A stretch of 64,000 nt of DNA. Source: Desulfobacterales bacterium (GTDB taxonomy: Bacteria > Desulfobacterota > Desulfobacteria > Desulfobacterales > JAHEIW01). Location: assembly GCA_050116835.1 (NCBI GenBank), contig JASFNW010000004.1, positions 7,024 through 71,023 on the forward strand, in the 5' to 3' direction. Within the stretch, counting starts at the first letter, position 1, and every line of letters starts with the position of its first letter. The translations under genes were made by a program, and so were the position numbers. Positions 7,774 through 27,349 of the stretch are shown here, piece after piece. The notes beneath the pieces were generated by a model. The model did no database searches. It saw nothing but the letters and a program-made list of their open reading frames with translations, and was not told the DNA's origin.

Positions 7774-8455
7774 TGACGATCTCCAGCATACATTGCTCAA
7801 GACTCTTTTCTTGCAATGACCGACGGCCATCAAAATCCTGCCCTTGCAGTGAAACGGCCTGCGGTTGCTTATGGTGACTGCGCAGCACAAGGATCTGCTT
7901 GCAAAATTTGGCAACCTCAACCACATTATGGGAAATATATAAAAAGCAGCGATCGGGATACAGCGCCTTGATTTTCAAAATTATTTTTTCTTTGGTGATT
8001 TCATCGACATTGGCCAGACTTTCATCCATGATCAGCAGGTCAAAGTTCTGGAGCAAATAACGCGTCAAATTGGTCCGGTTTTGCTGTCCCAGGGACAGTT
8101 GTGCGAAGCGAGAACGCAAACAGGCCTCGAGCCCAAAAGAATCCACCAGTTCTTCGAGGCGCTCGCGGTTGGGCGGCGGCGTTATTTGCGTCAGGTGATC
8201 ATAAACACTGTACCATCCCGGAAGCCGTTCCAGATTATAGGTGTAAAGGACATGCTCCATTTGATGGATGCGAATATCACCGGAAAATTCTTTGATGGCT
8301 CCGGTAATCATCTTAGCAAGGGTCGTCTTGCCCACACCGGATGGCCCGAACAACGCGTGAAAACCAGGTTTGGACACCCGACAGCTCAATTGCCGGAATA
8401 CGTTTCTGGTCGATCCCGGATAGGTATAATTGATGTCCCTCAATTCGAGCCGCAT
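7763..8455 (-). CDS. ABC transporter ATP-binding protein
   Basis: Walker A GPSGVGKTT, signature LSLGQQNR, Walker B LLIMDES, H-loop ISHN. Confidence 0.85.
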   Translation of the reverse strand: MRLELRDINYTYPGSTRNVFRQLSCRVSKPGFHALFGPSGVGKTTLAKMITGAIKEFSGDIRIHQMEHVLYTYNLERLPGWYSVYDHLTQITPPPNRERLEELVDSFGLEACLRSRFAQLSLGQQNRTNLTRYLLQNFDLLIMDESLANVDEITKEKIILKIKALYPDRCFLYISHNVVEVAKFCKQILVLRSHHKQPQAVSLQGQDFDGRRSLQEKSLEQCMLEIVNAA

Positions 8456-8491
8456 ATTACCTCTGAGAATTGAATTAGACTTAAAAAGCGC

Positions 8492-9679
8492 TTAAATTTG
8501 AATCAACGACTGGTCTGTCAACGTCAGTCTCTTAAGGCCTTCGGCGGTCATCACATAGTCATCCTCCAATCCCACGACGCCGGTTTGGGGAAAAACAAAT
8601 TTAGGCTCCAGGGCCAGCACCATGCCATTTTCCAGTTGACCTTCAAAACGCGGGGAAATAATCGGGTATTCATCGATTTCCAGCCCGATGCCATGGCCGA
8701 TGAATTTGACCTGACCGTCTCCATATCCCATAAAAAATTCGGCCAGGCCCTCTTGTTGCGCCCTGTGAGTCGCTGCTTCGTACAGCTGAGCACATGAAAT
8801 TCCAGGACGGGCCTCGTCGACCAAAACAGAGAGAATATCCTGCGAACAGGCGTAGGCCCTTTTCAGGCGCTCAGGAAGCGTTCCGACAACATAGGTTCTG
8901 AATTGATCGCCGACATAGCCGTTGATCGCGACCCCGTAATCGACCCCAATGGGTTCATTTCGCCGTATCTTGCGAAAACTGGCGCCCTGAGCCATGGCCG
9001 GTGTACTACCGGTGCCGCCGTGAGGGCTGTTCAGCAGCGAGACGGTTGCGCCGCTGTCGCCGGCCAGCACGTGGGCGTGGGTCATTTCCTGGTTCCAACC
9101 GCGCATGCGCAGTGTGCCCATATGACCTTCCCGTCGGGCAATCATGGCCAGGTGCCCGTCGATTTGCAGCTCGGTCATGCCTTCGCGAATAATATTTTTG
9201 AGCTCCGTCAAACCGATGTGCAATACAGCGGCAGACTTTTTAATCTGTTCAATTTCGTAATCTGACTTTAGCATTCGCAATCTGCGGATGAGGTTGGATA
9301 TGTCCTTCCAGCCGCATTGCGGCAGGGATTGCTGAAACCACAGATACAGATTGGCCGGCAGAACATCCATTTCAAGACCGGCCCGCTCCAAGCGACTAAA
9401 GCCGAAGTCCGCTAAGACATGTGAAACCGCATTTTTATTTTCGACCGGAATGATATTTTGCAACGAAGATTCAAGCTCGGCCCGTTTGAGATTTTTTTGG
9501 ATCATCAGGAGGGGCTCACCGTGCGCGGGCACAAACAAAACAGCAGATTGTATGGTTCCGCTAAAGTAAAACAGATCGGCATTCTGCAAAATAAAGGCAC
9601 CGTCCAGCTGGCGGGATGCCAGTTGGGTTTGCAATCTTCCGATACGCTGATGTATTTCCTGGCGGGGGACGAGATGCAT
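8492..9679 (-). CDS. M24-family metallopeptidase (Xaa-Pro aminopeptidase/creatinase-like)
   Basis: Creatinase-like N-domain plus pita-bread C-domain pattern (HGIGLEIDEYP, LEPKF, EDDYVMT). The ATG at Met15 is preferred. The TTG at 9721 is an alternative start. Confidence 0.8.
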   Translation of the reverse strand: MHLVPRQEIHQRIGRLQTQLASRQLDGAFILQNADLFYFSGTIQSAVLFVPAHGEPLLMIQKNLKRAELESSLQNIIPVENKNAVSHVLADFGFSRLERAGLEMDVLPANLYLWFQQSLPQCGWKDISNLIRRLRMLKSDYEIEQIKKSAAVLHIGLTELKNIIREGMTELQIDGHLAMIARREGHMGTLRMRGWNQEMTHAHVLAGDSGATVSLLNSPHGGTGSTPAMAQGASFRKIRRNEPIGVDYGVAINGYVGDQFRTYVVGTLPERLKRAYACSQDILSVLVDEARPGISCAQLYEAATHRAQQEGLAEFFMGYGDGQVKFIGHGIGLEIDEYPIISPRFEGQLENGMVLALEPKFVFPQTGVVGLEDDYVMTAEGLKRLTLTDQSLIQI

Positions 9680-10577: not shown

Positions 10578-10841
10578 CTATACGGGTCTGAAGCTCCTTT
10601 CCACGAGATTGGCCCATAATATGGTAATTATTTTTTAATGTCAAAGTGTCACCTGGCAACGGCATTTTGAAGGAATGAACTCAATTTTTAGTTGAAATAA
10701 ATCAGGGCTGTGAAATACTAGTAGAACGTGTACCCTGGAGACAGTATTTTTGACTGGGTTTAACGGTCGTTCTCTTTTTGCGTGACCTGCCAAAGTTTTT
10801 CGATGGCTTACAACAATGGAAAAAGGTTAAAATAAAACCCG

Positions 10842-11864
10842 ATGACTTTATCGGACACTTCCCCATCAATTTTTGACCTCACCGTCAGCCGCCACGGGCC
10901 GGACGTTTTGCGTATCAGCTGGAAAACCAAACATAAGAACCGGCCGGTATCGGTCTATCATGGGACGACACCGGAGACCATCGATCACAGGATCAATTTG
11001 GAACAAAGCAAGGACCAGAATGAGGTCACCCTATCGAAACTGAGCCCGTATGTGGCACACTATTTTAAAGTTGTTCCAGAAGAGGGTAAGGCGATCATCG
11101 TCGGTGAGCGGCGCCTTCCTCTGCAAAATACGGTGAACACGCGCGATCTGGGCGGATACGAAACCGCAGAAGGCCACCGGGTGAAGTGGGGAAAAGTCTT
11201 TCGTTCGGATCACTTGGCCCGGCTGTCGAATGACGATATTGCTTTTCTGCAACATATGAAGATTCAAAGTGTGTGTGATTTTCGCACCTCAGTTGAAGCC
11301 CGAAAAAGGCCGGATCGATTTCCAGCCCATGGTTACGGCACCTATGTTCATCTGCCGATCAACCATCTTAAGTTTGAGCCCAGCCGTTTATTTGAAAAAC
11401 TTAAAAATGGGGATGCGAGCTGGTTGACGCCCTCATTTTTGATCGAAGGCTATCGCTTAAATCTGGATCAATTTGCCACCGCCTGGGGGGAAGTTTTCAG
11501 GCGGTTGGCAGATCCCAAAAGCCTGCCGCTGCTGTTTCATTGCACCGGCGGCAAGGACCGGGCCGGCACCTTTGCAGCCCTGCTTTTGCTTGCGCTGGGG
11601 GTACCAGAAGAGACGGTTATCTATGATTACGGGCTGTCCAATATTTATATCGCTGATGTCGTCAATCAGATATACGCGCAATTTAATATTGATGCCGAAT
11701 ACCGGGATAGAATTGCGCCTTATTTTTCAGCACCGCGATACTGCATTGAAGCCCTGCTTTCCCATCTGCATGATCAATATGGCTCACCCATCGAATACCT
11801 CACATCCCGGGCGGGGGTAACTGAAGAGATGCTGGAAGCCATCAAAAATCAGCTGCTTGAGTAA
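10842..11864 (+). CDS. Protein-tyrosine phosphatase family protein (Y_phosphatase3-like) with N-terminal FN3-like region
   Basis: CX5R active-site loop HCTGGKDRAG. NTRDLGG and FRSDHL motifs are typical of this family. Confidence 0.75.
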   Translation: MTLSDTSPSIFDLTVSRHGPDVLRISWKTKHKNRPVSVYHGTTPETIDHRINLEQSKDQNEVTLSKLSPYVAHYFKVVPEEGKAIIVGERRLPLQNTVNTRDLGGYETAEGHRVKWGKVFRSDHLARLSNDDIAFLQHMKIQSVCDFRTSVEARKRPDRFPAHGYGTYVHLPINHLKFEPSRLFEKLKNGDASWLTPSFLIEGYRLNLDQFATAWGEVFRRLADPKSLPLLFHCTGGKDRAGTFAALLLLALGVPEETVIYDYGLSNIYIADVVNQIYAQFNIDAEYRDRIAPYFSAPRYCIEALLSHLHDQYGSPIEYLTSRAGVTEEMLEAIKNQLLE

Positions 11865-12647: not shown

Positions 12648-13757
12648 TTATTCTACCTTTTTGTTATTGTTCACGCCCGATTCAGGGGCAAATGGTCCAC
12701 CGATAACCTTATCCCTTCCTGAATTTTTCGCCTGGTAAAGATACTGATCTGACATCTCGACAAGGTTTTCCACCAAAAAATCCTCAAGGTTTGCGCCCTT
12801 GTCAATGCCGGTGACGCCGAAGCTGGCGGTAATAGAAATCTTCTCTCCCTCCCAGTTAAATTTCTTTTTTGAAATTTGCTTGCGAAGCCTTTCGGCCAGG
12901 CGGCTGGCATTCTTGTAATGAGTTTCGGGCAAAACAAGTAAAAACTCTTCTCCGCCATATCGTGCCAGCCAGTCCATGTCGGATCGGATCAGAGACAGGA
13001 TGCGCTGCACAAATTCCGTTAGGACCATATCGCCGCATAGATGACCGAAGGTGTCGTTTACCTGTTTGAAGTGATCGATGTCACATAGAGCTATCGACAG
13101 CGGGTGGTGATACCGTGAAGCCCTTTTAATTTCGTGCTGCAGGTGTTCGTTGAGGTAGCCGCGATTATAGCACCCGGTCAGAGAATCTTTTCTGGATAAC
13201 AGCCTGATTTCGCCATTGGCCTTTTCGAGCGATTTGTGCTTTCTTTTCAAACGTTCATACAGCAACGTGTTTTCCAGCACCAGTGAATATTGTTTGGCCA
13301 GCATGGTCAGAAGCTTCATGTTTTCCTGGGTTATGGAGCTTTCTTTGATGGGTGTCTTCAGCATGACGACACCCAGCGTTCTTTTAATGGTTGAAAGCGG
13401 CAACATAACAATTGACTTACCGTCTTCAAATGCCAGAGGAGGGATGAGCGCCGGTTGTCTGCGGTTGATAATCCAGGGAAATATGCCGCATTCAACTTGA
13501 TAATCGACTTCTTTTTTGCAGACTTTCTTTCTGTCATCAGGATAAACATATTCTAAAATAAATTCGTGGGAATCGTCATCAACGACAAAAAAGGCACAGA
13601 CCTCAATCTCGATTAAGCTGCGCACATCATCCAGAAATACCTCCCATATCTGTCCGATGGTGGCCGGGAAATCGATGCGGTCCTGAAATTGCCCCATGTG
13701 CTCTATTTTATCAATAAGCTCCAACAGGGCTGTTCTTTGTTCCGACATGGTCATCAT
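12648..13757 (-). CDS. GAF-domain diguanylate cyclase (GGDEF)
   Basis: N-terminal GAF-like region. C-terminal GGDEF domain with DIDHFKQVNDTFGH and RYGGEEF. Confidence 0.85.
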   Translation of the reverse strand: MMTMSEQRTALLELIDKIEHMGQFQDRIDFPATIGQIWEVFLDDVRSLIEIEVCAFFVVDDDSHEFILEYVYPDDRKKVCKKEVDYQVECGIFPWIINRRQPALIPPLAFEDGKSIVMLPLSTIKRTLGVVMLKTPIKESSITQENMKLLTMLAKQYSLVLENTLLYERLKRKHKSLEKANGEIRLLSRKDSLTGCYNRGYLNEHLQHEIKRASRYHHPLSIALCDIDHFKQVNDTFGHLCGDMVLTEFVQRILSLIRSDMDWLARYGGEEFLLVLPETHYKNASRLAERLRKQISKKKFNWEGEKISITASFGVTGIDKGANLEDFLVENLVEMSDQYLYQAKNSGRDKVIGGPFAPESGVNNNKKVE

Positions 13758-14030
13758 CTCCTAAGCTTGCAATATCTTATCAAAAATAATTTTTAGCGCA
13801 AGCCTTTCAAATCATATCGAAGATCGACACCATCGAATGGTCGGCCTGATTTTACGCTGGATTTTTTTAACGGTTCATTGTAGCGTTCACATTTAATTTC
13901 GATTCTACTGCTTCAGGCCGGCTGACCGCCGAACAGAGAAGGAATCAAAGTGAATCCGGATTAACGGCTTATCGTCTTCGTTGGCACCCGGTTTTAGTTA
14001 AACAGTGAATATCTGGCTGTAAATTGAAAA

Positions 14031-14759
14031 ATGAGCAACAACCAGAAGGTTACTTTATTTATTCAGTGTTTGGTTGACACGCATTACCCCGAAGTGGCTG
14101 AAGCCATGGTGCGCGTGCTGCAAGGGCTGGGGGTTTCCCTGAGCTGCCCTGTGGACCAAACCTGCTGCGGTCAGCCGGCTTTTAATTCCGGGTACCGCCG
14201 CGAGGCCCGGGTTGCCGCGCGCCATTTCATTGAGGTGTTTGAAGCGTCAGAAACAATTGTCTGTCCGTCGGGATCCTGTGTAAACATGGTGCGGCATCAT
14301 TACAAAGAGCTGTTTCAAAACGAGCCCCACTGGTTGCCGCGCGCCTTGAATCTTGCGAAGCGTACTTTTGAGTTTAGTGAGTACCTGGTGGACGTGCTCG
14401 GGGTTGACGATCTGGGGGCGCGCTTTGAAGGGCGGGTCACCTACCATGATTCCTGTCATTTGCTGCGCGGTATCGGTGTCAGACAACAACCGCGCGCACT
14501 TTTGCAGCATGTCGCCGGTATCGATTTTATTGAAATGCGGGACGCGGATTATTGTTGCGGATTCGGCGGCACCTTTTCCGTTAAATATCCCGATATTTCA
14601 GACGCCATGGTCACGGACAAGGCTCAAAATATTTTGGACACCAAGGCCGATGCGGTGGTGGGCTGTGATATGGGCTGCCTGATGAACATCCAGGGTAAAC
14701 TCAGCCGCCTGGGCAGCCCTATAAAGGTGCTGCATTTGGCGCAAGTCCTTGCAAGCTAA
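14031..14759 (+). CDS. lutA: Lactate utilization protein A, (Fe-S)-binding CCG-domain oxidoreductase
   Basis: 242 aa. Two CCG-type Cys motifs (CCGQPAFNSG, CCGFGGTF). YkgE/LutA-like and followed by lutB and lutC. Confidence 0.85.
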   Translation: MSNNQKVTLFIQCLVDTHYPEVAEAMVRVLQGLGVSLSCPVDQTCCGQPAFNSGYRREARVAARHFIEVFEASETIVCPSGSCVNMVRHHYKELFQNEPHWLPRALNLAKRTFEFSEYLVDVLGVDDLGARFEGRVTYHDSCHLLRGIGVRQQPRALLQHVAGIDFIEMRDADYCCGFGGTFSVKYPDISDAMVTDKAQNILDTKADAVVGCDMGCLMNIQGKLSRLGSPIKVLHLAQVLAS

Positions 14760-14772
14760 AATGATATAAGTA

Positions 14773-14934
14773 ACCGCAGACGCGCGCAGACGTTCGCAGA
14801 TATTTTGTAACGATCAACATTAGAGATACGGCATTAAAAGACGGATAGGTTTTTAGCCCAAAGGGCTTGAGAAATTTCCTCCCGACAGGTCCTCGGGAGG
14901 AAATGGTCCGCGTAAGTCTGCGGTCGTCTGCGGT
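14773..14934. repeat. Nested palindromic element inside the lutA-lutB spacer
   Basis: Terminal arms accgcagacgcgcgcagac / gtctgcggtcgtctgcggt. Internal hairpins agccc-aaa-gggct (14855-14867) and tttcctcccga..tcgggaggaaa (14875-14903). Confidence 0.75.
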
Positions 14935-14950
14935 CAAATAAAGAAAAACA

Positions 14951-16378
14951 ATGACCAAAATAGCGACTGAAAACTATGTGGCTGAGGCCAGAAAGGCGCT
15001 TAAAAATTCGACTCTGCAAAGGGCGCTGGCGGATTTGCAGAACCGTTTTGGCCGGGGTACGGCTGAATGCTACCGGCGGTTGCCGGAGGGGCCCGACCTG
15101 CGCTTAAAAGCCCATGAGATCCGGATGAAAACCATTGAAAACCTGGACGTTGTTCTGGAAACCCTGGTGGCCAACATCCGCGAGAATGGTGGTCATGTAT
15201 ATTTTGCCAAAGACAGTCAGGCGGCTGTAAATTATTGCCTCGAGGTCGCCCGGCGGCATGGCGTTCGACGGGTGGTTAAAGGCAAATCTATGGTGAGCGA
15301 GGAAATCGGCCTAAATGATGCCCTTATCGATGCCGGCATCGAGGTCTCCGAGACAGACCTGGGCGAATACATCATCCAACTGGCCGGCGAGACCCCTTCG
15401 CACATCATTGCACCGGCCATTCACAAAACCCGCCATGACGTCGGCAGCCTCTTTGCCGATCATCTCGACATCCCTTACGAGGAAGATCCGCCAAAATTGA
15501 CCTGGATTGCCAGAAAGGCCTTGCGACGAAAATTTCTGGCGGCCGATATGGGCACTTCCGGCTGTAACATTGCCTGTGCGGAAACCGGACACATCACAAC
15601 TGTCTCAAACGAGGGCAATATCCGCATGTCAACAACCCTGCCGAAAGTCCACATGGCTTTCATGGGCATGGAGCGGGTTGCCGCCCGCCTCGAGGATCAT
15701 GATATTCTATTAAGGCTGCTGTGCAGGGGAGCTGCGGCACAGAATATGGCCACCTACGTCAGCTATATCGGCGGGCCCCGCCGGACGGACCAGGCCGACG
15801 GCCCGCAGGAATTCCACCTGGTTATTCTGGATAATGGGCGCAGCCGGATTCTGGCCGATCCCGAATTTCGTGAGATGCTATGCTGCATCCGGTGTGCAGC
15901 CTGCCTGAATGTGTGTCCGGTTTACGCTAAAATCGGCGGGCATTCATACGGCTACGCTTACACCGGGCCGGTGGGAGCGGTGGTTACACCGCTGCTGGTG
16001 GGCATCAATCGCGCCAAGGACCTGTGTCTGGGGGAGACCCTTTGCGGCGCCTGCCAGGAGGCCTGTGCGGTCAACATTGATCTGCCGCGCATGTTGCTGG
16101 CGTTACGGGCAAAGCTGGCCGAAGGCGATCCGGCCTGGGGCGTAAGGCCGGCCGATCGGCGGCAAAATCTGATGTGGCAAATCTGGTCTTGGATCATCCG
16201 CAAGCGTGCGGTTTACGAAGGCGTCCTGCGCCTAGCAGCTCTGGGGGAGAAGCTGATGCCGCAGCGGAACGGCATGATCCGCCGACTGCCGGCGCCGGTC
16301 AATGGCTGGACGCAGGGGCGCGATTTAAGGCCACTGGCCAAGGAAAGTTTTATACGCCGCTGGAAAAAAGGCCTTTAG
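14951..16378 (+). CDS. lutB: Lactate utilization protein B, 4Fe-4S ferredoxin-type protein
   Basis: 475 aa. CIRCAACLNVCP and CGACQEAC cluster motifs. YkgF/LutB-like length and context. Confidence 0.85.
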   Translation: MTKIATENYVAEARKALKNSTLQRALADLQNRFGRGTAECYRRLPEGPDLRLKAHEIRMKTIENLDVVLETLVANIRENGGHVYFAKDSQAAVNYCLEVARRHGVRRVVKGKSMVSEEIGLNDALIDAGIEVSETDLGEYIIQLAGETPSHIIAPAIHKTRHDVGSLFADHLDIPYEEDPPKLTWIARKALRRKFLAADMGTSGCNIACAETGHITTVSNEGNIRMSTTLPKVHMAFMGMERVAARLEDHDILLRLLCRGAAAQNMATYVSYIGGPRRTDQADGPQEFHLVILDNGRSRILADPEFREMLCCIRCAACLNVCPVYAKIGGHSYGYAYTGPVGAVVTPLLVGINRAKDLCLGETLCGACQEACAVNIDLPRMLLALRAKLAEGDPAWGVRPADRRQNLMWQIWSWIIRKRAVYEGVLRLAALGEKLMPQRNGMIRRLPAPVNGWTQGRDLRPLAKESFIRRWKKGL

Positions 16379-16439
16379 AATGGTGCTCGGGGAAGTGAGC
16401 GGCCATGGATAGTGGGCATATCATTTGTCGAAAGGCGGC

Positions 16440-17207
16440 ATGCATACAATGAGAGATTCAGGACAAGAGCAGTTTATAAACACCATCAAAAAGGCTTTAG
16501 GAAAACCGCAGGCCGAATCGAGAGCCGAGGCCGATTTGTTCGGCGAAGACATATCCGCTCAAAGCCGGGCTCTAGTGGAAGGCATCCAAAATCGTTCCAT
16601 TGCCGACAGAAAAAAGCTGCTTGACACGCTGATTGAAGCCGCTGCGCCCATCAACCTGAAGGTCATTCCCTGTGATGATACTAGCACGGTAACGACTGCC
16701 ATTACGGCATTAGTGCGGAAAAAAGATCCCGAGTGGGGAGATCAAAAAAGTGTGGTGGCCTGGGCTCACCCGCTGGTCGAACGCCTGCATCTGCCGGCGG
16801 CTCTGGCAGAGCAGAATGTGCCGCTTTTTGTCACCGATCTGGAGACAACCGCCAACAAAGACATCCGGCAGCAGGTGATTGATGCTTACATAGGGGTTAC
16901 CTCGGCCGATTTTTGCATGGCCGACACCGCCACTTTGGTGATGCGGACACATCCCGGGCAGGCGCGCACCGTATCACTGGTGCCGGCCATTCATATGGCC
17001 GTTATCCATCTCAACCAGATTATTGCCGATTTAAAAGAGCTTTACGCTCTGCTTAAATGGGACCCGCATGAGAGCCAGCAAGGCCTGACCAATTGCCTGA
17101 CCTTTATTTCGGGTCCCAGCAAAACCGCTGATATCGAAGCCACCATGGTCCATGGCGCCCATGGCCCCCGGGAAGTCCACCTTTTTGTGATTACCGCCCA
17201 GGATTGA
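16440..17207 (+). CDS. lutC: Lactate utilization protein C (LUD domain)
   Basis: YkgG/LutC-like protein directly after lutB. Start set at the first ATG (Met6 of the track ORF); 16449 is also possible. Confidence 0.7.
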   Translation: MHTMRDSGQEQFINTIKKALGKPQAESRAEADLFGEDISAQSRALVEGIQNRSIADRKKLLDTLIEAAAPINLKVIPCDDTSTVTTAITALVRKKDPEWGDQKSVVAWAHPLVERLHLPAALAEQNVPLFVTDLETTANKDIRQQVIDAYIGVTSADFCMADTATLVMRTHPGQARTVSLVPAIHMAVIHLNQIIADLKELYALLKWDPHESQQGLTNCLTFISGPSKTADIEATMVHGAHGPREVHLFVITAQD

Positions 17208-17344: not shown

Positions 17345-17390
17345 GTTGTCGCAAAAAAACGTTCTGCAATCGGAACGTTTTTTTGACAAC
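17345..17390. repeat. Near-perfect 18-20-nt-arm palindrome containing A7/T7 runs
   Basis: gttgtcgcaaaaaaacgttc - tgcaatcg - gaacgtttttttgacaac. Possible bidirectional terminator or operator. Confidence 0.5.
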
Positions 17391-17687
17391 GACTATAAAA
17401 TTGGATTCGCCCGGTGCGGCCTCCTGACCAGTCTGAAATCGATCTCGAAACGCATAATTGACACCTCTTTGCTCCGTACCTACCTTTCTTGCATACCTAC
17501 CAAGAATCTGTGTTCAATTAAATTTCATCAGCTGTCATGGACGAGGAGAAATCATTTGACGAACGTGAAATGAATTTCCTATTAGATGATATGACGGGTT
17601 CAAACGATAGCAAAACGAACCTGAAAGCAATTGAGTCGGAAAGATAATTCATAATTAACCGGTGGGTTTCTTCGTCTATAAAACCAT

Positions 17688-20159
17688 TTGGAGGAGCGCA
17701 AATTGCGAAGAGAAGAAGTGGTTAAACTCAATTTCGGAGGTCGCAACAGCCAAAAATCTCTGCGGGGGCACTTCTTTCGTGTGGCAGGTCCGATTGGCTT
17801 TGTGTTTGTCATGCTGGCTGCGCTGCTCGCCATTATCGTTTATTCCTATTTTAGCAATCGCCGGGATGCATTGGCTTTGTCGGAGGAAGTGCTGGGTGCG
17901 ATCGAACGGCGCATCGCCGGCGAGTTGGATGCTTTTATAGTACCGATTGAAGATACGGTTCAGCTCACTGCCGACTTCTTAGAAAATACGCCATTTGACA
18001 TTCACAATCGGGATCTCCTGGAATCCCTTGCTTTCAGAGTTTTGGGCAACCTTTCGCAGGTAAGCAATTTCATTGTGGCCGATCTTCAAGGCAACTTCTT
18101 AATGATCGCCCGCCAGCCGGATGGGTCCCTGCACACCAAAATTATGGAGCGCTCCGACGCCGCCGCCCAGACCACCTGGATTCGCCGGGACCCGGCGGGC
18201 AACGTGGTTGATGAAGAAACTGTCTTCGATGATCCTTACGATCCGCGAGAGCGGCCCTGGTACACGGGGGCTGTAAACAGAGAGGAGCCAAACTGGTCCG
18301 ATTTCTACATATTTTTTACCAGTCAGACCCACGGCGTAACCGTCTCTTTGCCGATTATGGGAAAAAGCGATGAACGCCTGGGTGTATTCGGCATGGATGT
18401 CGAATTGAAAGACGTCAGCGCGTTTCTGGAGACGCTCAAAATCGGCCAGAACGGGGAAGCCATCATTATCGACGAAGAGGGATACATCGTTGCCCATCCG
18501 GAGATCAAAAAAATGGTGAAAAGGGAAGGCGATCTGTATAAACCCATTTTGGTGGAAGAACTGGGAAATCCGGTTTTAAATCGCGCATACAGCCGGTTCT
18601 TGATCGAGGGCCATGGTCATCGGGATTTGGTGGTTGACGGTCGGCGTTATCTGAGTACTGCCTTTCTGATGCCTCAAAAAACAGGGCTCGATCTATCGGT
18701 ATTTGTTTTTGTACCGGAGGAAGACTTTGTCGGATTTGTGGGGCGCAACAACCGCAATATTATCCTGATGTCCGCCGGCATTGTGCTGCTGGCAGCCATT
18801 ATGGCCGGTTTGCTGGTTTTCCAGGGGCTGCAGGCGGAACGCAATGCCCGGCAGGTGCTCGATCGCCAGCATCAACTCGAGGCCCAGAGCCGGGCCTTTT
18901 CTGAGCTCTCATCCAGCGCGGCCATGTTTGATGCCGAGGATATGGAATCTTTCGGGCAGTTAACCGAAATTGTTACCGGTGCCATCAATTTAAGACGTAG
19001 CAGCTTATGGAATTATGATGATGGCGGCCAATTCTTGAAGTGTATCGACAGTTACGATCTCGAAAGCTACGGTCATACGAAGGGGACCGTGCTGAACCGG
19101 ATCGACTTTCCTATGTTGTTTGATCTGTTAGAAAACGGCGAAGAGATCGAGGCCGTTGATGCGGAAACGGATACGCGATTGGCCGAACTGTATCGGGTTT
19201 ACTTGCAACCGCTGGGCTGTGAATCATTGTTGGCGGTACCGATTCGTTATCACGGTCACACAGTAGGGGCCCTGTGGTTCGAGCATGATCGTCAGCACGA
19301 CGGCTGGTCGAGTGAAGAAATTTCCTTTGGGCATGCCATTGCCGACATGCTGGCGCTGCGGTTGTCAGTGGATCCAGCATGCATCCGTGCATTTGCACAG
19401 CCGGAAGAAGATATTGAAACTGCAGAGGCACCGGGTGCCTCATCGCCGCAACCGGCCCCGGTCGCAGGGGACATTCAACCCGAGGGCCATCCTGTTGCAC
19501 CCGAGATCACCCAACAACGTTCGGGCCCCAATTCGATGGGCGGAAAAGCGCCCATCACCTCGTTTTTGGATCGTCTCAAGGCCGGTGGTATTGATCCCGA
19601 TCAAACCGCGGCAGATATATTTCCCGAAATGACTGTCCTGGTCCTGCAGTTTACCGATACCCTATCCCTTGCCGGTCGCATCACGGATACCGACACCACA
19701 ACGACGGTTGATCAAATGGTCGGTCACCTGGAAGATTTGGTCACAGCCCAGGGCATCGACTACATGAAGGTGATGGGGGAGGAAATCGTCTGTGCGGCGG
19801 GATTCAAATCTGGACTCGAAGACCATGCCGGTCTGATTGCTGACCTGGCGCTCGGGATCCAGAATCACTGTAGCAGCTTGTTTGCATCGCAAAACACAGC
19901 CATGGAATTCCGAGTCGGGATCGATACCGGGGCCGTTTTGGGCAGCTCGGTGGGTCGCAAAGCGAAAACGTATAATATTTGGGGCGAGTCGGTTCGTTTT
20001 GCATCCAAGATGGCTGATTCCGGAATACCCGGCGGCATCCAGGTTTCGGAAACGACCTATCGTCGGCTGCGCGCCCGTTACCTGTTTAAATTGCGCGGCC
20101 ACTACTATTTGCCCAACATCGGTGAAACCTCAACCTATCTTCTGACAGGACGAATATGA
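17688..20159 (+). CDS. Membrane sensor: periplasmic Cache-like domain, TM, GAF domain, class III nucleotidyl-cyclase-homology domain (motifs divergent)
   Basis: 823-aa ORF. Two TM segments flank a Cache-like region (PWYTGAV, GVFGMDVEL, IIIDEEGYIVAHPE). GAF-like segment (LLAVPIRYHGHTVGALWFEH). C-terminal cyclase fold (RVGIDTGAVLGSSVG, YNIWGESVRFASKMAD, IQVSETTYRRL). The TTG at 17703, preceded by GGAGGAG, may be the true start. Confidence 0.75.
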   Translation: MEERKLRREEVVKLNFGGRNSQKSLRGHFFRVAGPIGFVFVMLAALLAIIVYSYFSNRRDALALSEEVLGAIERRIAGELDAFIVPIEDTVQLTADFLENTPFDIHNRDLLESLAFRVLGNLSQVSNFIVADLQGNFLMIARQPDGSLHTKIMERSDAAAQTTWIRRDPAGNVVDEETVFDDPYDPRERPWYTGAVNREEPNWSDFYIFFTSQTHGVTVSLPIMGKSDERLGVFGMDVELKDVSAFLETLKIGQNGEAIIIDEEGYIVAHPEIKKMVKREGDLYKPILVEELGNPVLNRAYSRFLIEGHGHRDLVVDGRRYLSTAFLMPQKTGLDLSVFVFVPEEDFVGFVGRNNRNIILMSAGIVLLAAIMAGLLVFQGLQAERNARQVLDRQHQLEAQSRAFSELSSSAAMFDAEDMESFGQLTEIVTGAINLRRSSLWNYDDGGQFLKCIDSYDLESYGHTKGTVLNRIDFPMLFDLLENGEEIEAVDAETDTRLAELYRVYLQPLGCESLLAVPIRYHGHTVGALWFEHDRQHDGWSSEEISFGHAIADMLALRLSVDPACIRAFAQPEEDIETAEAPGASSPQPAPVAGDIQPEGHPVAPEITQQRSGPNSMGGKAPITSFLDRLKAGGIDPDQTAADIFPEMTVLVLQFTDTLSLAGRITDTDTTTTVDQMVGHLEDLVTAQGIDYMKVMGEEIVCAAGFKSGLEDHAGLIADLALGIQNHCSSLFASQNTAMEFRVGIDTGAVLGSSVGRKAKTYNIWGESVRFASKMADSGIPGGIQVSETTYRRLRARYLFKLRGHYYLPNIGETSTYLLTGRI

Positions 20160-21001
20160 GCGACGAAGGCGTCATATTAAAAGGAAACACAAGATTGCAT
20201 GCGGGATCGATGCCGAGACGCTTGCTTGCTACCACCGGAAAATGGACGATAGGCCTCTGGCGGGCGTTGGTTCGATTGATCAGCGATGCCGTGGCCGTCA
20301 TCTGGCAAAGTTGTCGCCCGATGACCTGGCGACAATCAATGCGCATCGAGTTTATGCGCCAGTGTTATGAGGTGGGCGCAAGTGCGCTACCCTTTATTCT
20401 GCTCAGCGGGGTTTTCGTTGGGTTTGGCACCTTGGCCCAGACGATTCACTGGTTAAGGGTGTTTGGCGGTACGGCATTGTTCGGAGGCTTTCTGTCCGAA
20501 ATTTTGGCAACCGAAATTGCACCGCTGGCGGTGGGACTGATTTTGATCGGACGCAGCGGATTGAGGCTTTTGGTCGAATTGGGCTCCCTGAAGGTCGAAG
20601 GTCAGGTCCGTATGCTGGATGCCCAGGGAATCGATCCGTTTCTGTATCTGGTGGTGCCGCGGGTATTGGCATTTTGCATTTGTATGTTTTCGCTGACCGT
20701 TGCCTTTGTGGCGGTGGCTATTTTAGCAGGGTATGCTTTAGGTGCCGTTGCCGGCCTGATACAATTCACCTTTTTCGATTTCCTCAATCGCGCCATTGGT
20801 TCATTGGGGTGGCAAACCTATGTCGTGTTTACCTTGAAGACAATTGCCATTGGGTTTGCGATTGCGCTGATATCCTGCAAGACGGCGCTCTCGGTTAGCG
20901 GTGTCTCGGCCAATGTCGTGGATATTATGCCGAGGGGATTTGCCCAATCTGCCCTGGCCACCCTGATCATATCCATTGCGATCACAATCTTATTTAAATG
21001 A
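20156..21001 (+). CDS. mlaE: MlaE-family ABC transporter permease
   Basis: 281 aa. MlaE-like pattern (LVELGSLKVEGQVRMLDAQGIDPFLYLVVPRVLA). The ATG overlaps the sensor stop (ATGA). Confidence 0.8.
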   Translation: MSDEGVILKGNTRLHAGSMPRRLLATTGKWTIGLWRALVRLISDAVAVIWQSCRPMTWRQSMRIEFMRQCYEVGASALPFILLSGVFVGFGTLAQTIHWLRVFGGTALFGGFLSEILATEIAPLAVGLILIGRSGLRLLVELGSLKVEGQVRMLDAQGIDPFLYLVVPRVLAFCICMFSLTVAFVAVAILAGYALGAVAGLIQFTFFDFLNRAIGSLGWQTYVVFTLKTIAIGFAIALISCKTALSVSGVSANVVDIMPRGFAQSALATLIISIAITILFK

Positions 21002-21013
21002 TGGTGACATCTA

Positions 21014-21721
21014 ATGGCGGTGATTTTAGAGAAGCAGCGTGATATCTTAAAATTCGAAGATACTGTTTTTACGAGTGCCATCCGCGGCATCGCGGAATCC
21101 GATAAACTCAGCCTGAGTATTTGCAGCGGTGAGCTGGCTTTAATCCGTCTGGCGCGTTTGGAGCAGACAGGGGGATTTGCGGATGCGTGCTCCGGAATAT
21201 TTTCACCGACCAGTGGGCGCATCTTTTTTCTGGGAAGAAACTGGCTGGAGCTTGCGCCCGACCAGGCCAATGCACTGCGGGGCCGAATCGGACGTGTATT
21301 CAGGACCGGCAACTGGATTAACCACTTATCACTGATGGAGAATATATTGCTTCCACAACTTCACCATACCCGGAGACCTGCGCGCCGGCTGCGGGATGAA
21401 GCCGGGAAACTGGCAGAGCAGTTTGGTCTTCCCGGGCTGCCTTTAGGACTGCCCGGCGATTTTACAGCAGCCGACCTGCGGCGCGCTGCCTGTGTGCGAG
21501 CATTTTTGGGTCGGCCCCTGCTGATTCTGCTGGAAGAGCCAACTTCCGGAATTTACCTTGAAGTCATATCGGCACTGATGACGGCCATCCGAGAGGCGCG
21601 TGAGCGCGGCGCCGCAGTGATCTGGTTGACGCAGAAAGATTTGATCTGGAATGATCAGACCCTGCCGGTAACCCAACGCTATCGACTGGTGTCCGGGAAG
21701 TTGATGGAGATGACAACATGA
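21014..21721 (+). CDS. MlaF-like ABC ATPase homologue with degenerate catalytic motifs (probable pseudo-ATPase)
   Basis: ABC-fold spacing is retained: Q-loop region, LLILLEEPTSG at the Walker B position, D-loop. There is no GxxGxGK[ST] P-loop (it reads LIRLARLEQTGG). The signature reads FTAADLRR instead of LSGG. The H-loop His is replaced (LTQKD). Confidence 0.6.
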   Translation: MAVILEKQRDILKFEDTVFTSAIRGIAESDKLSLSICSGELALIRLARLEQTGGFADACSGIFSPTSGRIFFLGRNWLELAPDQANALRGRIGRVFRTGNWINHLSLMENILLPQLHHTRRPARRLRDEAGKLAEQFGLPGLPLGLPGDFTAADLRRAACVRAFLGRPLLILLEEPTSGIYLEVISALMTAIREARERGAAVIWLTQKDLIWNDQTLPVTQRYRLVSGKLMEMTT

Positions 21722-22764
21722 AAGAGACGCTCAGGCAACCAAAGTTCCGCTACACGAATGAGACGGTCGGGTTGTTTGTATTGATCAGCCTGCTGATTTT
21801 TGTTGCCGGATTGATATATTCCGGTCAAGTGCGCAAGTGGTTTAACCCCGGTGAAACGCTCAAGGTGGTATTACCCGATGAAGGACTTTCCGGCTTGAGC
21901 GTAGGCTCGAAAGTAGAAATTTTGGGCACCCAGGCCGGGGAAGTCAGAGATATCGTCATCAATCCCGATCAGAAGATACATGCGAATGTGCGCATTGACA
22001 GTAAGATGGCGGTATTTGTTCGCAGCGATTCAAAAGCATTCATACGAAAGACATTCGGTATCGCCGGTGATGCCTATCTTGAAATCACCCGGGGCACCGA
22101 GGCCCCGCTTGACTGGGAATTTGCCGTTCTTACCGTCGAGTCCGATCGCAAGACATCCGACACATTGGCGGAACTCATCGAAGAGCTACGCGCCAAGATA
22201 TTACCGGTTGTCGAGGATGTCCACCAAGCGATCCTGTTGCTCACTAACGTTGCCAAGGACCTGCAGGATCCCGAAAAGGGGGTTCAGCAGTTGCTGACGA
22301 ATCTGAATTCCATTGCCGATAAGATTGCTCGCGGGGAAGGGGCGCTCGGCCGCCTGCTGACCGAAGATACGCTCGTAAGGGACCTGGAAAGCCTGATCGC
22401 TCGCTTGGCGCCGCTTTTTGATGATTTGGAAGAAATGGTTGACAACGTCTCGGAATACTCCGCTGAATTCGATACCGAAACCGGTGATATTCCTAAAATT
22501 ACACGCAGTCTTAAAAAGACAATGGCGTCCTTGGAAATCGTGATGAAGGACCTCAGCGAAGCAACACCCCGGCTGCCGAAGATTGTCGAAAATGTCGGAG
22601 ACACTGCGGATGAGGTCCCGACACTCGTTTTGCAGTTGCAACAGGTCATGGTCGAACTGGAGCGTCTGATCCAACAACTCCAGTCTAACTGGTTACTGGG
22701 CGGTGGCTCCAGTCAGCCGTCGCAGACGGCAACCCGAATATCCCCCCTGGAGGTAAACCCATGA
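21718..22764 (+). CDS. MlaD/MCE-domain protein with extended helical C-terminus
   Basis: N-terminal TM (VGLFVLISLLIFVAGLIY). MCE domain (LSGLSVGSKVEILGTQAGEVRDI). Long helical tail. ATGA overlap with the upstream gene. Confidence 0.8.
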   Translation: MKETLRQPKFRYTNETVGLFVLISLLIFVAGLIYSGQVRKWFNPGETLKVVLPDEGLSGLSVGSKVEILGTQAGEVRDIVINPDQKIHANVRIDSKMAVFVRSDSKAFIRKTFGIAGDAYLEITRGTEAPLDWEFAVLTVESDRKTSDTLAELIEELRAKILPVVEDVHQAILLLTNVAKDLQDPEKGVQQLLTNLNSIADKIARGEGALGRLLTEDTLVRDLESLIARLAPLFDDLEEMVDNVSEYSAEFDTETGDIPKITRSLKKTMASLEIVMKDLSEATPRLPKIVENVGDTADEVPTLVLQLQQVMVELERLIQQLQSNWLLGGGSSQPSQTATRISPLEVNP

Positions 22765-23741
22765 TCCGTTATCTGCGCTCGAACAATTGGGTGATGTTTG
22801 TCGGCTTGCTGATAGCAGTTGCCGTTTTGACGCTGAGCGGGTGCGGGTCTTCAGCACCCAGGCAAAAAGGTCCGGCCGTAGACGAAGCGCTCGAGCGTTT
22901 TAACCGGGCAGCGCGATTGGCTTTTGACAAGGGCCGACTCGAGCAGGCCGCAAATTTATATCGCAAAGCGCTGGAGCGTGCTTACGTGCGTGATGATTCA
23001 GCCGCAATTTTGGATGCCCGCTACAATCTGGCCGTTTGTTTGTTGAATTTGCAATCCTATGCAGAAGCGCTGTCCGTCGTGCAGCGCGCCAATAGCGAAA
23101 TGGCGCTGGCAGGGCGTAACGATTCGCCCGATTTTCTTCTCCTGGAAGCGACCATACATTATCATAGCGGTGATTTGGATGAGGCCTGGAAAATTACGGA
23201 CCAAATCCTGTCCGCTGCGAAGCCGGCACCTTCAGTCATCAAAAGCAAAACCCATTACCTGCGGGGTTTGATTGCAAGCAAACAGGGCGACAAGGATCAG
23301 TTGCGCGCGGCAATCGCCGCTCTGGGACAGCCGCAGCAACCTCAGTTGCGCGCAGATCGTCAGGAATTGTTGGGACACCTGGCCATGGCGGAACAAAACG
23401 GGGATGCGGCGATGGATGCATTTGACGCAGCGGCAAACCTGCGTCGGGAAACGCTTGACTATCGCGGAATGGTCAAAGCCCTGGCGCTGGCCGGCGCGGC
23501 CGGTGAAAAGGCAGGACGTCCCCAGGAAGCTTCGATTCGTTACCTCAGAGCCGGGCGCAGTGCCCTGCTGCAGGGGCTGTTCGACAACGCCCGCAAATGG
23601 TTGAACCGGGCTGAACAAATTGCCGGCGCAACCGGTGAAGCCCAAATTGCCGCAGAAGCCCGCACCTATCTGCGGCAGCTTGAGGAGTTAGCTTCATCCG
23701 CATCTGCCCGTCCCGCTCAAAAGGCGACCTTGCCGGAGTAA
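22761..23741 (+). CDS. TPR-repeat lipoprotein
   Basis: Signal plus lipobox LTLSGC. Repeated Ala/Leu-rich TPR-like helices. ATGA overlap with the MlaD-like gene. Confidence 0.65.
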   Translation: MIRYLRSNNWVMFVGLLIAVAVLTLSGCGSSAPRQKGPAVDEALERFNRAARLAFDKGRLEQAANLYRKALERAYVRDDSAAILDARYNLAVCLLNLQSYAEALSVVQRANSEMALAGRNDSPDFLLLEATIHYHSGDLDEAWKITDQILSAAKPAPSVIKSKTHYLRGLIASKQGDKDQLRAAIAALGQPQQPQLRADRQELLGHLAMAEQNGDAAMDAFDAAANLRRETLDYRGMVKALALAGAAGEKAGRPQEASIRYLRAGRSALLQGLFDNARKWLNRAEQIAGATGEAQIAAEARTYLRQLEELASSASARPAQKATLPE

Positions 23742-23842
23742 ATTCGGGTGAACAGCGATAACCCTCAGACATGGAATCGAAGTGTTTACCTGGATCAGAT
23801 ACCTATCAATTTTAAACGAACGTGTTTTTCGGGGATGCTGCC

Positions 23843-24946
23843 ATGAACAAAGACGCGATCAATAAATGGGTATTGCTGTTGCTGGTGTTTTTTATCTCGG
23901 CCCTTTTTCTGTCAATGATACGCCAGTTTCTGATGGCCATTTTCATGGCCGGTATTTTCTCGGCGCTGTCTTATCCTCTGTATCGGCGCTTTGAAAAATG
24001 GTTCAAAGGTCGACGCAGCCTGGCGTCTATCGCAACGCTCATTTTGATCGTCTTTGTTGTTATCTTGCCACTGGGTGGGCTGCTGGGAATTGTCACCGGA
24101 CAGGCCATTAAGGTGGGCGAAGCCGTCAAGCCCTGGGTGGAGCAACAGCTGTCCGAGCCCGACGCCATTTCCAACACACTCAAAACCCTGCCGTTTTATG
24201 ATCGCATCGAACCCTACCGCAATTGGATCTTGACCAAAGCCGGACAACTTGTCGGTCATATCAGCAGTTTTCTAATCGACCGTCTCCGAGCCGTCACCGT
24301 CGGAACCGTTAATTTTTTGTTCATGCTGTTTATTATGCTCTATACGATGTTCTTTTTTCTGATGGACGGAGACAAGTTGATTGATAAAATGCTTTACTAT
24401 TTACCGCTGGAAGATCAGGATGAACGCCGCATACTGGATAAATTCACTTCGGTTAGCCGCGCGACGCTTAAGGGGACTGCAGTAATCGGTATTTTACAGG
24501 GAGCCCTGGCCGGAGCCGCATTTGCCGTAGTGGGAATTCACAGCGCGGTGTTCTGGGGCACCATCATGGCGGTGCTGTCCTTTATCCCCGGTATCGGCAC
24601 CGCGCTGGTGTGGATACCGGCGGCGATTATTCTGTCCGCTAGCGGACACCTGGCCAAAGGCATCGGCCTGGGCGTTTTCTGTGCGGCAGTGGTGGGCAGC
24701 ATTGACAATCTGCTGCGCCCCATTTTGGTGGGCAGAGACACCCAGATGCACGAGTTGATGATTCTTTTCGGCACCCTGGGCGGCATTGTCATGTTCGGCG
24801 TGTTGGGGATCATCATCGGACCGATCATTGCAGCCCTGTTTGTAACGGTTTGGGAAATCTATGGTGTGGCCTTTCAGGAGGTGTTGCCGGGGGTGATGTC
24901 TTCTGGCGCTGACGAAGACGAATCCAGAAAGAAAACGTCTGAATAA
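23843..24946 (+). CDS. AI-2E family transporter (PerM/UPF0118)
   Basis: Polytopic protein with family-typical motifs (ATLKGTAVIGILQGALAG, IPGIGTALVWIP, DNLLRPILVG). Start set at the ATG (Met8 of the track ORF) with an upstream GGGGA. Confidence 0.8.
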   Translation: MNKDAINKWVLLLLVFFISALFLSMIRQFLMAIFMAGIFSALSYPLYRRFEKWFKGRRSLASIATLILIVFVVILPLGGLLGIVTGQAIKVGEAVKPWVEQQLSEPDAISNTLKTLPFYDRIEPYRNWILTKAGQLVGHISSFLIDRLRAVTVGTVNFLFMLFIMLYTMFFFLMDGDKLIDKMLYYLPLEDQDERRILDKFTSVSRATLKGTAVIGILQGALAGAAFAVVGIHSAVFWGTIMAVLSFIPGIGTALVWIPAAIILSASGHLAKGIGLGVFCAAVVGSIDNLLRPILVGRDTQMHELMILFGTLGGIVMFGVLGIIIGPIIAALFVTVWEIYGVAFQEVLPGVMSSGADEDESRKKTSE

Positions 24947-26650: not shown

Positions 26651-27349
26651 TCAGATTCCACAGATGTGTTTGACTTCTTCGTTGTCGACAAGTTCTTCAA
26701 CCCGGCCCTGGTAGCAAATCCGGCCGTTGTCGATAATGTAGCCGTAGTCGCTTAGGGTCAGCGTAAATTTCACATTTTGTTCGGCCAGCAAAACCGTTAA
26801 GCCGACTTCTTTGAGCCTGCGGATGCGCTCGCCCAGCGTTTTGACCAGCACCGGCGCCAGTCCTTCAGTGGGTTCATCCAGCAACAGAAACTGCGGATTG
26901 GTCATCAGGGCCCGACCGATAGCCAGCATTTTTTGCTCCCCACCGCTCAGCAGACCGCCCTTGCGGTTGTCCATTTCCTTCAATGCCGGAAACAAATCGT
27001 AAACCTTTTGTTTATCCCACTGGTCACTCGTCATGCTTTTTCGTTCTGCAATTTCCAGGTTCTCGCCAACGGTCAAGTCGGCAAAGATGCGGCGGTCATC
27101 GGGCACCCAGCCCATGCCTTGCCTCACCAGTTTATAGGGTGGCGTGCCGGTTATATCTTTGTCGTTCAAGTGAATCTGTCCCCGGGATGGAGGGTTCAAC
27201 CCCATGATGCTTCTGAATGTGGTGGTCTTACCGGCTCCATTGCGGCCCAGCAAGCAGACCACCTGCCCCCTTTCAACTTTTAGTGATACATCGAACAGAA
27301 TGTGACTCAGGCCGTAATACGTATGAATATCCTTTACCTCGAGCATCAT
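26651..27349 (-). CDS. livF: Branched-chain amino acid ABC transporter ATP-binding protein
   Basis: Walker A GRNGAGKTT, LSGGEQKM, LLLDEPTEGLAP. ATGA overlap with livG. Confidence 0.9.
   Translation of the reverse strand: MMLEVKDIHTYYGLSHILFDVSLKVERGQVVCLLGRNGAGKTTTFRSIMGLNPPSRGQIHLNDKDITGTPPYKLVRQGMGWVPDDRRIFADLTVGENLEIAERKSMTSDQWDKQKVYDLFPALKEMDNRKGGLLSGGEQKMLAIGRALMTNPQFLLLDEPTEGLAPVLVKTLGERIRRLKEVGLTVLLAEQNVKFTLTLSDYGYIIDNGRICYQGRVEELVDNEEVKHICGI

Follow-up and report, generated by a model that had tools for sequence, protein, structure and literature searches.

Systems built around MCE and Mla proteins are central to the movement of lipids between the two membranes of diderm bacteria, and how they are energised and regulated, and in which direction they work, is debated. 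Among described systems, the MlaFEDB transporters of E. coli, A. baumannii and P. aeruginosa contain an MlaE permease, an N-terminally anchored MCE protein and a subunit with the fold of a nucleotide-binding domain (NBD). These three elements recur in a five-gene cluster situated at 17688–23741, on the + strand, of a 64000-nt stretch of a Desulfobacterales contig (JASFNW010000004.1), here called the window. Compared with MlaFEDB, this module adds a receptor and a TPR lipoprotein; its NBD-like subunit has neither the ATP motifs nor the C-terminal extension of MlaF; its MCE protein has 348 aa with a long helical extension, versus the 183 aa of MlaD; its order is E-F-D instead of F-E-D; and the cluster contains no genes for STAS/MlaB, MlaC or MlaA. 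We propose, with moderate confidence, that the five genes specify an assembly of the Mla/MCE type that spans the envelope, has a regulatory, non-catalytic cytoplasmic face and is controlled by the receptor through a pseudo-cyclase. An original prediction, made from the sequence alone, had described the cluster as either a signal-gated or a signal-emitting variant of an MCE lipid-trafficking machine, and the first of these is the reading that best fits the results below.

Other described proteins resemble single parts of the module. Grasekamp et al. (2023; PMC10665443) proposed that the long-MlaD MlaEFD systems, as in Veillonella parvula, are ancestral bridges across the envelope. These systems have the E-F-D order of the module, and their single-MCE protein has an alpha-helical part thought to span the periplasm, which the helical extension of the window protein would resemble; however, a term search of that paper found no dead NBD, cyclase-homology partner or TPR lipoprotein. 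Unlike long-MlaD and needle MCE proteins (PqiB, Mce1), the window MCE protein seems to lack a C-terminal beta-barrel, and its short conserved tail ends in Pro. Class III membrane cyclases (Rv1625c/Cya, and those linked to Cache, CHASE or GAF domains) have, as the module receptor does, a transmembrane (TM) sensor, a cytoplasmic signalling domain and a C-terminal cyclase-homology domain (CHD). The window CHD is 28–29% identical to mycobacterial Cya, with the same fold, but it differs from these cyclases in the replacements D->Q, D->E, D->N, N->R and R->K, in its predicted disordered tether and in the coupling of its gene to mlaE. The receptor also resembles the dCache_1AA sensors PctA, Mlp24 and Tlp3 (PMC8915833) in its double-Cache domain with the full Y-x4-R-x-W-Y...Y...D motif in the membrane-distal module, although its output is a predicted pseudo-cyclase and not a chemoreceptor, kinase or active cyclase. 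Finally, the degenerate NBDs of heterodimeric exporters such as TM287/288, PatAB and CFTR have, like the NBD-like subunit, an NBD fold with non-consensus motifs, but in those proteins one consensus site for ATP persists and both NBDs have a Walker A, whereas the sole NBD-like subunit of the module has lost Walker A, signature and H-loop His alike. The prediction that the system was undescribed stands, in that searches aimed at a cyclase–MCE link or at an Mla ATPase lacking Walker A found no description of it in literature whose coverage falls short of all journals.

All five predicted open reading frames (ORFs) are present in the sequence, together with the junctions claimed for them. They code for the receptor, or sensor (17688–20159), an MlaE-family permease (20156–21001, 281 aa), an ABC-NBD-like protein (21014–21721, 235 aa), which we call the pseudo-NBD, a long MCE/MlaD protein (21718–22764) and a TPR lipoprotein (22761–23741, 326 aa; Pfam TPR families). 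ATGA stop/start overlaps occur at 20156–20159, 21718–21721 and 22761–22764 (junction letters GAATATGAGC, ACAACATGAAAG and AACCCATGATCC, respectively), and a spacer of only 12 nt (21002–21013) separates mlaE from the pseudo-NBD gene. The assignments to MlaE and MCE were borne out by searches with Pfam hidden Markov models (HMMs): the permease matched PF02405 with 142 bits (cut-off 22.5), its relatives in the Protein Data Bank (PDB) being MlaE of P. aeruginosa, E. coli and A. baumannii and YrbE1A/B, and the MCE protein matched MlaD (PF02470) over residues 57–126 with 44.1 bits (cut-off 25.1).

The match of the pseudo-NBD to ABC_tran (PF00005) is weak, 28 bits versus a cut-off of 25, and its alignment to E. 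coli MlaF (6xbd) showed the replacement of every ATP motif. Walker A changes from GPSGIGKTT to RLARLEQTG, with neither the Gly-rich loop nor the Lys; the Q-loop Gln is R97; the LSGGM signature reads FTAAD; Walker B (hhhhDE) reads LLEEP, with FDEP of MlaF turned into LEEP and the Asp replaced by Glu; and the H-loop His is Q207, the position being occupied by Q or R across homologues. The earlier label of ABC-ATPase-like protein therefore holds for the NBD homology and fails for the Walker A, Q-loop Gln, signature, Walker B Asp and H-loop His, all of which are lost. The replacement residues are nearly invariant in 121 homologues (at least 68% identity), in the form RLARLEQT, TAADLQR, LLEEP and WLT[RQ]K; the substitutions are under purifying selection and not the product of drift. 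When 1.84 billion representative proteins were searched exhaustively with HMMER, the family comprised 201 clusters at 50% identity (E<=1e-30), and the Walker A pattern G..G.GK[ST] occurred in 0/139 of its full-length best representatives (30–48% identity). Motifs HHTRR, FGLPGLP and RAACVRAFLG are kept in all subtypes of the family, and LRGRIGRVF is also shared by the representatives. A specific descent from MlaF was considered and not supported, because the family profile matches the NBDs of FtsE, LolD, MacB and MlaF about equally (80–100 bits), and the designation as MlaF-like is justified mainly by gene context. With all ATP motifs lost from its NBD-like subunit, the machine would therefore not be an ordinary ATP-driven Mla transporter.

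A comparable loss affects the C-terminal CHD of the receptor (residues 647–820, nt 19626–20147; Pfam PF00211, 91.4 bits), whose predicted fold matches cyclase catalytic domains with a TM-score of ca. 0.84 (Foldseek). The active site of class III cyclases needs a metal-Asp half plus a K/D/N/R half. Alignment of the window CHD to mycobacterial Cya (4p2m) placed Q654, K694, E698, N763, R770 and K774 at the positions of the catalytic D, K, D, D, N and R, so that only one of the six residues is retained. In a domain-only alignment of 113 sensor homologues, the first metal Asp was never Asp (R in 98, K in 9 and Q in 6), the substrate Asp was Asn in 112, with a gap in the remaining one, the transition-state Asn was replaced by Arg, Ser, Gly or Thr, and the transition-state Arg was mostly Lys or Met. 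Likewise, none of the module-linked CHDs examined has all six catalytic residues. Since the window CHD has lost both halves of the active site, no competent site is expected either as a homodimer or as a heterodimer with an active CHD, and the best reading of the alignments is that the window type of sensor CHD does not emit a cyclic nucleotide (cNMP). The signal-emitting option of the original prediction was accordingly abandoned, with 5/6 catalytic residues lost and the loss fixed in the 113 homologues and in module-linked CHDs.

That the five genes form one unit, as had been proposed, is supported by the conservation of their order across several phyla. Three sensor homologues with 75%, 57% and 48% identity lie in the same five-gene arrangement, with unrelated flanks. 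A scan of one genome per GTDB species with a pseudo-NBD alignment gave 189 confirmed loci, of which 80 were examined by searching six-frame ORFs with the domains of the window; the family is thus present in no fewer than 189 species-representative genomes, recognised by one pattern of 10 residues. The order Cache-GAF-CHD, MlaE, pseudo-NBD, MlaD, TPR was found in Desulfobacterales, Ca. Entotheonella and Ca. Acidoferrum (Acidobacteriota), as well as in Stellaceae, Geminicoccaceae, Competibacteraceae, Chromatiaceae (Chromatiales) and Burkholderiales, the carriers thus including Alpha-, Beta- and Gammaproteobacteria. In the Acetobacteraceae, carriers are Gluconobacter morbifer, Gluconacetobacter, Komagataeibacter rhaeticus, Acetobacter cibinongensis and Asaia, and also Neoroseomonas, Plastoroseomonas, Lichenicoccus, Elioraea and Rhodopila. 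The adjacency of sensor and mlaE, on which the prediction had been staked beforehand, is kept: a full sensor, in the transmembrane Cache+GAF form, and mlaE lie upstream of the pseudo-NBD gene in 60/66 genome loci with at least 3.4 kb of upstream DNA. Downstream, mlaD and the TPR gene follow in 62/63 loci with at least 2.7 kb of DNA; a locus from Ca. Entotheonella (L027) has a short MlaD match (10681–10887) with no TPR gene detected after it, a combination seen in no other genome locus whose downstream DNA is ample.

Four-base overlaps are an ordinary operon feature, also present elsewhere in the window (e.g., at 27346–27349), and by themselves prove little. Here, however, they go beyond chance because they are conserved across distant taxa, with in-frame NTGA overlaps in 67/72 loci between the sensor gene and mlaE, in 69/84 between the pseudo-NBD gene and mlaD, and in 70/76 between mlaD and the TPR gene; between mlaE and the pseudo-NBD gene they occur in only 13/81 loci, a short gap being usual. 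The reported absence of MlaB (STAS) and MlaC was reproduced, because no match to these families, or to that of MlaA, was obtained with Pfam or NCBIfam in the five genes or in the scanned flanking genes; additionally, MlaB, MlaC and MlaA were absent among the called genes of the loci of the three sensor homologues. A search of plasmids with the Gluconobacter homologue gave no match.

Variants of the module differ in the CHD gene. A soluble GAF-CHD gene, convergent and situated directly after the TPR gene, replaces the membrane sensor in L043, L044 and L067 (the latter from Pseudideonella/Ideonella sakaiensis) and in the metagenome loci L087, L089, L091–L093, L095 and L138, whereas a GAF-CHD gene lies upstream of mlaE in L115 and L119. 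A REC-CHD gene has its stop codon overlapping mlaE in L066 (Desulfuromonadales), and lies downstream of the TPR gene in L106. The residues of these variant CHDs at the six catalytic positions are SKNDDQ, SKDDNQ, DKEDNQ (L043) and DKDDQQ (L066). Loci L040 and L052 lack the upstream sensor, and their downstream DNA is too short to show a convergent CHD gene. Lastly, ca. 12 metagenome loci, including L112 and L116, contain the core four genes with a CHD gene not found nearby. In both L112 (4152–6974, − strand) and L116 (4013–6817, − strand), a gene for a CheB-CheR-PAS fusion of ca. 935 aa is divergent and upstream of mlaE, and may mark a substitute regulatory partner or be there by chance. The input domain is thus variable (Cache+GAF, GAF or REC), which is the pattern expected if the CHD is the constant, module-facing end of these proteins. 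Because the inputs vary, the degenerate CHD is constant and an output domain is absent, we read the CHD as the end that would engage the transporter. A separate observation concerns L067, from strain 201-F6 of P. (Ideonella) sakaiensis, where a gene for a VTT/DedA-domain membrane protein (7909–8919, + strand) is directly upstream of mlaE; DedA proteins have been linked to lipid flipping.

The receptor ORF was predicted to code for 823 aa, and an ORF of this length exists; its full length is probably not translated, because a TTG at 17703–17705 is preceded, 6 nt upstream, by a Shine-Dalgarno-like GGAGGAG (17690–17696, + strand, read from the sequence), and 818-aa homologues begin there. Indeed, 48/120 sensor homologues have 818 aa and start at the codon equivalent to this TTG, which makes it a more likely start than 17688. 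The protein contains, in order, TM1, a periplasmic dCache_1 domain (residues 87–287, nt 17946–18548; PF02743, 70.9 bits), TM2, a long helix, a cytoplasmic GAF domain (residues 425–559, nt 18960–19364; PF01590, 44 bits), a Pro/Ala/Gln-rich linker (residues 566–624, nt 19383–19559) and the degenerate CHD. In the AlphaFold2 (AF2) model, with a mean pLDDT of 74.8 (ca. 80–90 for the GAF domain), helices 21–63 and 344–409 flank the double-Cache fold, the second of them being continuous and comprising TM2 plus a stalk. The linker is predicted to be disordered, with pLDDT <50 and without secondary structure, and the spacing from GAF to CHD varies from 35 to 126 aa over 68 loci. The CHD therefore looks flexibly tethered, given this disordered linker of ca. 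60 residues and the variable spacing, unlike active sensor-cyclases, which carry a rigid helical connector. There were 249 sensor homologues at E<=1e-10; among the 120 matches listed, all those named were from Desulfobacterales or deltaproteobacterial metagenome-assembled genomes, with the exception of one partial sequence labelled Planctomycetota.

As to the input of the window receptor, the AA_motif for amino-acid binding comprises, in PctA numbering, Y121, R126, W128, (Y129), Y144 and D173 (PMC8915833). The window sensor has Y184, R189, W191, Y192, Y207 and D237 (nt 18237–18398), with 14 residues between the two halves of the motif, within the published range of 13–17 (PMC8915833). In the family the motif is exact in 34/62 members; replacement of Y by F is frequent, and 8 members have N in place of D. 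Additionally, the modeled Cache fold matches the domains of the amino-acid chemoreceptors Mlp24, PctA, PscC and Tlp3 with TM-scores of 0.7–0.8 (Foldseek). By both motif and fold match, the Cache domain looks like that of an amino-acid sensor.

The MCE protein has a hydrophobic N-terminus, as a TM helix or membrane anchor, followed by the MlaD domain, which also matches NCBIfam TIGR00996 and TIGR04430 below their cut-offs. Residues ca. 135–325 (ca. 190 aa) match only helical or coiled-coil families (ApoLp-III, DUF948 and SpiroCoCo) and, among PDB entries, apolipoprotein A-IV; homologues match Pfam Helical_needle faintly. Some 25 residues follow this helical region, too short a stretch for a beta-barrel per protomer. 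They include the C-terminal tail WLLGG-x(9-12)-RISPLEVNP (nt 22687–22761), kept across phyla in ca. 75 loci as WLLGG-x(9-12)-R[IL][SP]PxEVxP-COOH. The best solved match to the MCE domain was PDB 13hr chain I (26 bits), a 312-aa 'Mce/MlaD domain-containing protein' present in 8 chains, which outscored the MlaD chains of E. coli, A. baumannii and P. aeruginosa against the window MlaD. This entry is a possible long MlaD, and is not among the MlaE matches.

The signal peptide of the TPR protein, as read from the sequence, contains the lipobox L25-S26-G27-C28 (LTLSGC; nt 22833–22844, + strand). A strict pattern of a hydrophobic stretch followed by Cys was found in 61/72 TPR homologues, with near-variants in 10 of the other 11; the remaining one, from L067, showed no lipobox motif in the stretch inspected. 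No sequence relative of the lipoprotein was found among solved structures. Extended C-terminal peptides are common ligands of TPR domains, and the conserved MCE tail is encoded next to the TPR gene; by analogy, a contact between tail and TPR protein, at the distal end of the MCE assembly, is a reasonable inference.

In the assembly that we propose, an MlaE dimer in the inner membrane would hold a dimer of the NBD-like protein, without motifs for binding or hydrolysing ATP, which would be blind to nucleotides and play a structural and allosteric part. On top, the long MCE protein would form a hexamer, with its helical extension directed toward the outer membrane, where the TPR lipoprotein would probably capture the conserved C-terminal tail. 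The first gene would supply a dimeric receptor with its periplasmic dCache domain and amino-acid-binding motif, the pseudo-cyclase domain of which would serve as an adaptor, docking on the base formed by MlaE and the pseudo-NBD and making the conduit open or close in response to the input. This input would be a periplasmic amino-acid-like ligand in the window, and a GAF ligand or the phosphorylation of REC in the variant modules, while the passage of lipids or other hydrophobic cargo would involve no hydrolysis of ATP by the NBD-like subunit.

Several observations weigh against this proposal. The GAF-CHD and REC-CHD variants are less degenerate than the window CHD, as in DKEDNQ and DKDDQQ, and by their residues they might conceivably have residual cyclase activity. 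A CHD partner is also not obligatory in cis: ca. 12 metagenome loci have the core four genes without a CHD gene nearby, even though L112 and L116 span 7–8 kb on each side. The AF2 single-chain model of the pseudo-NBD, made with 58 close homologues, is poor (pLDDT 44, pTM 0.29), and the fold assigned to this subunit comes from sequence homology only. The loss of its motifs predicts a loss of ATP binding, short of proof. Furthermore, the outer-membrane placement of the lipoprotein is borrowed from the +2 rule of E. coli, which possibly does not apply here, and amino-acid sensing has no known mechanistic tie to lipid transport.

The record annotations of homologues ('class 3 adenylate cyclase' and 'phospholipid/cholesterol/gamma-HCH transport system ATP-binding protein'), together with PF00005 and PF00211 matches above their cut-offs, would instead suit an ordinary ATP-driven, Mla-like phospholipid transporter lying beside an active cyclase and linked to it through cNMP. 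We consider this very improbable, in view of the replacement of the Walker A Lys, Q-loop Gln, LSGGQ, Walker B Asp and H-loop His, with no Walker A among the 139 representatives, and of the five fixed replacements in the cyclase site, which extend to both of its halves so that a heterodimer would offer no rescue. The same loss of catalytic motifs in two genes could also be taken to mean that the cluster is a decaying, non-functional remnant of an Mla operon plus a cyclase gene. This is hardly credible for five intact ORFs whose order and coupled junctions are kept across phyla, and whose replacement residues are conserved, in the case of the pseudo-NBD in a family of at least 200 clusters at 50% identity.

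The death of both enzymatic engines is compatible with a trans-envelope sensor or tether that transports nothing, in which the MCE needle and the TPR protein would report or maintain the geometry of outer membrane and periplasm while the dead NBD and CHD, as a cytoplasmic scaffold, recruit unlinked effectors; the TPR protein and the conserved MCE tail do suggest a fixed bridge, and the CheB-CheR-PAS fusion is divergent and upstream in two loci without a nearby CHD gene. We nevertheless think this arrangement rather unlikely, since the CHD proteins carry Cache, GAF and REC inputs and no output domain, as if the signal flowed inward, and the MlaE and MCE domains are well conserved, as expected if a substrate path has been kept. 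Transport might otherwise be energised from elsewhere, by a canonical NBD from another locus, by nucleotide binding to the CHD or GAF domain, or by the proton-motive force. The PqiABC and LetAB systems work with MCE proteins and without any ABC ATPase, and nucleotide binding without cyclisation is conceivable because the ATP-contacting metal Asp, Lys and Asp persist in variant CHDs (DKDDQQ in L066 and DKEDNQ in L043). However, the ATP site of an NBD dimer is formed by the Walker A of one subunit and the signature of the other, and the pseudo-NBD has neither, so that a heterodimer with a canonical NBD would lack a consensus site; the conserved module contains no second NBD gene; and in the window subtype Arg, Lys or Gln stands in place of the first metal Asp in 113/113 sequences. 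External energising is thus a doubtful, quite improbable explanation.

A bolder form of the receptor-controlled assembly, which we put forward tentatively as a possibility below even chances, is that the receptor has taken the place of the ATP engine. The pseudo-cyclase dimer would then dock on the nucleotide-blind NBD dimer and gate the lipid channel of MlaE and MCE mechanically, so that a chemical signal, with no expenditure of ATP, would switch the flow of lipid from one membrane to the other. Speculating further, the ligand of the dCache_1AA pocket might be an amino-acid-like lipid head group, such as that of phosphatidylserine or of an ornithine-type aminolipid, in place of a free amino acid, in which case the receptor would be the substrate sensor of its own conduit.

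The G+C content is even over the module region (0.52–0.54). Upstream of the module (12648–17207) there is a GAF-GGDEF gene followed by lutA-lutB-lutC. These genes also precede the module in a 990-kb contig of a relative (L001, 521–4977), there with an extra NorB-like gene in between. An AT-flanked palindrome, AAAAAAACGTTCTGCAATCGGAACGTTTTTTT, situated 3′ of lutC (17355–17387), resembles a bidirectional terminator and would part lutABC from the sensor operon; a consensus terminator scan did not list it because its stem has few G-C pairs. Within the 480-nt leader 5′ of the sensor gene there is a 36-codon ORF, MDEEKSFDEREMNFLLDDMTGSNDSKTNLKAIESER (17537–17647). The DNA around the leader (17370–17702) is ca. 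79% identical in two related loci (L011 and L130), yet the ORF is frameshifted in L130, and the idea of a leader peptide was therefore rejected in favor of probably untranslated leader sequence. Searches of Rfam at gathering thresholds found nothing in the whole window, and hence no known riboswitch or leader 5′ of the sensor gene. Downstream, an AI-2E transporter gene (23822–24946, + strand) starts 80 nt 3′ of the TPR gene, followed by a convergent aminotransferase gene. No terminator-like site was found between the TPR and AI-2E genes, and the latter may be co-transcribed in the window by read-through; it was discarded as a module member because it is absent from homologous loci. Elsewhere in the window, an ORF of 1114 aa (39898–43242, − strand) had no Pfam match at E<=1e-5.

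Of chief interest here is the co-conservation of two pseudoenzymes with an MCE/Mla lipid-transport chassis in many taxa, and the record names 'adenylate cyclase' and 'phospholipid transport ATP-binding protein' are both probably wrong as to function. The module amounts to a natural experiment on how MCE systems are energised and regulated, in which MlaE, the MCE protein and the NBD fold have been kept, the ATP motifs lost and a receptor gained. Some carriers can be grown in culture (Komagataeibacter rhaeticus, Gluconobacter morbifer, Acetobacter cibinongensis and Pseudideonella (Ideonella) sakaiensis), which brings the hypothesis within direct reach of experiments. If it is true, MlaE/MCE conduits could work, or stay shut, with no ATP being hydrolysed, cyclase-homology domains would acquire a new function, that of a pseudoenzyme for protein docking, and the lipid traffic of the envelope would have a ligand-controlled handle.

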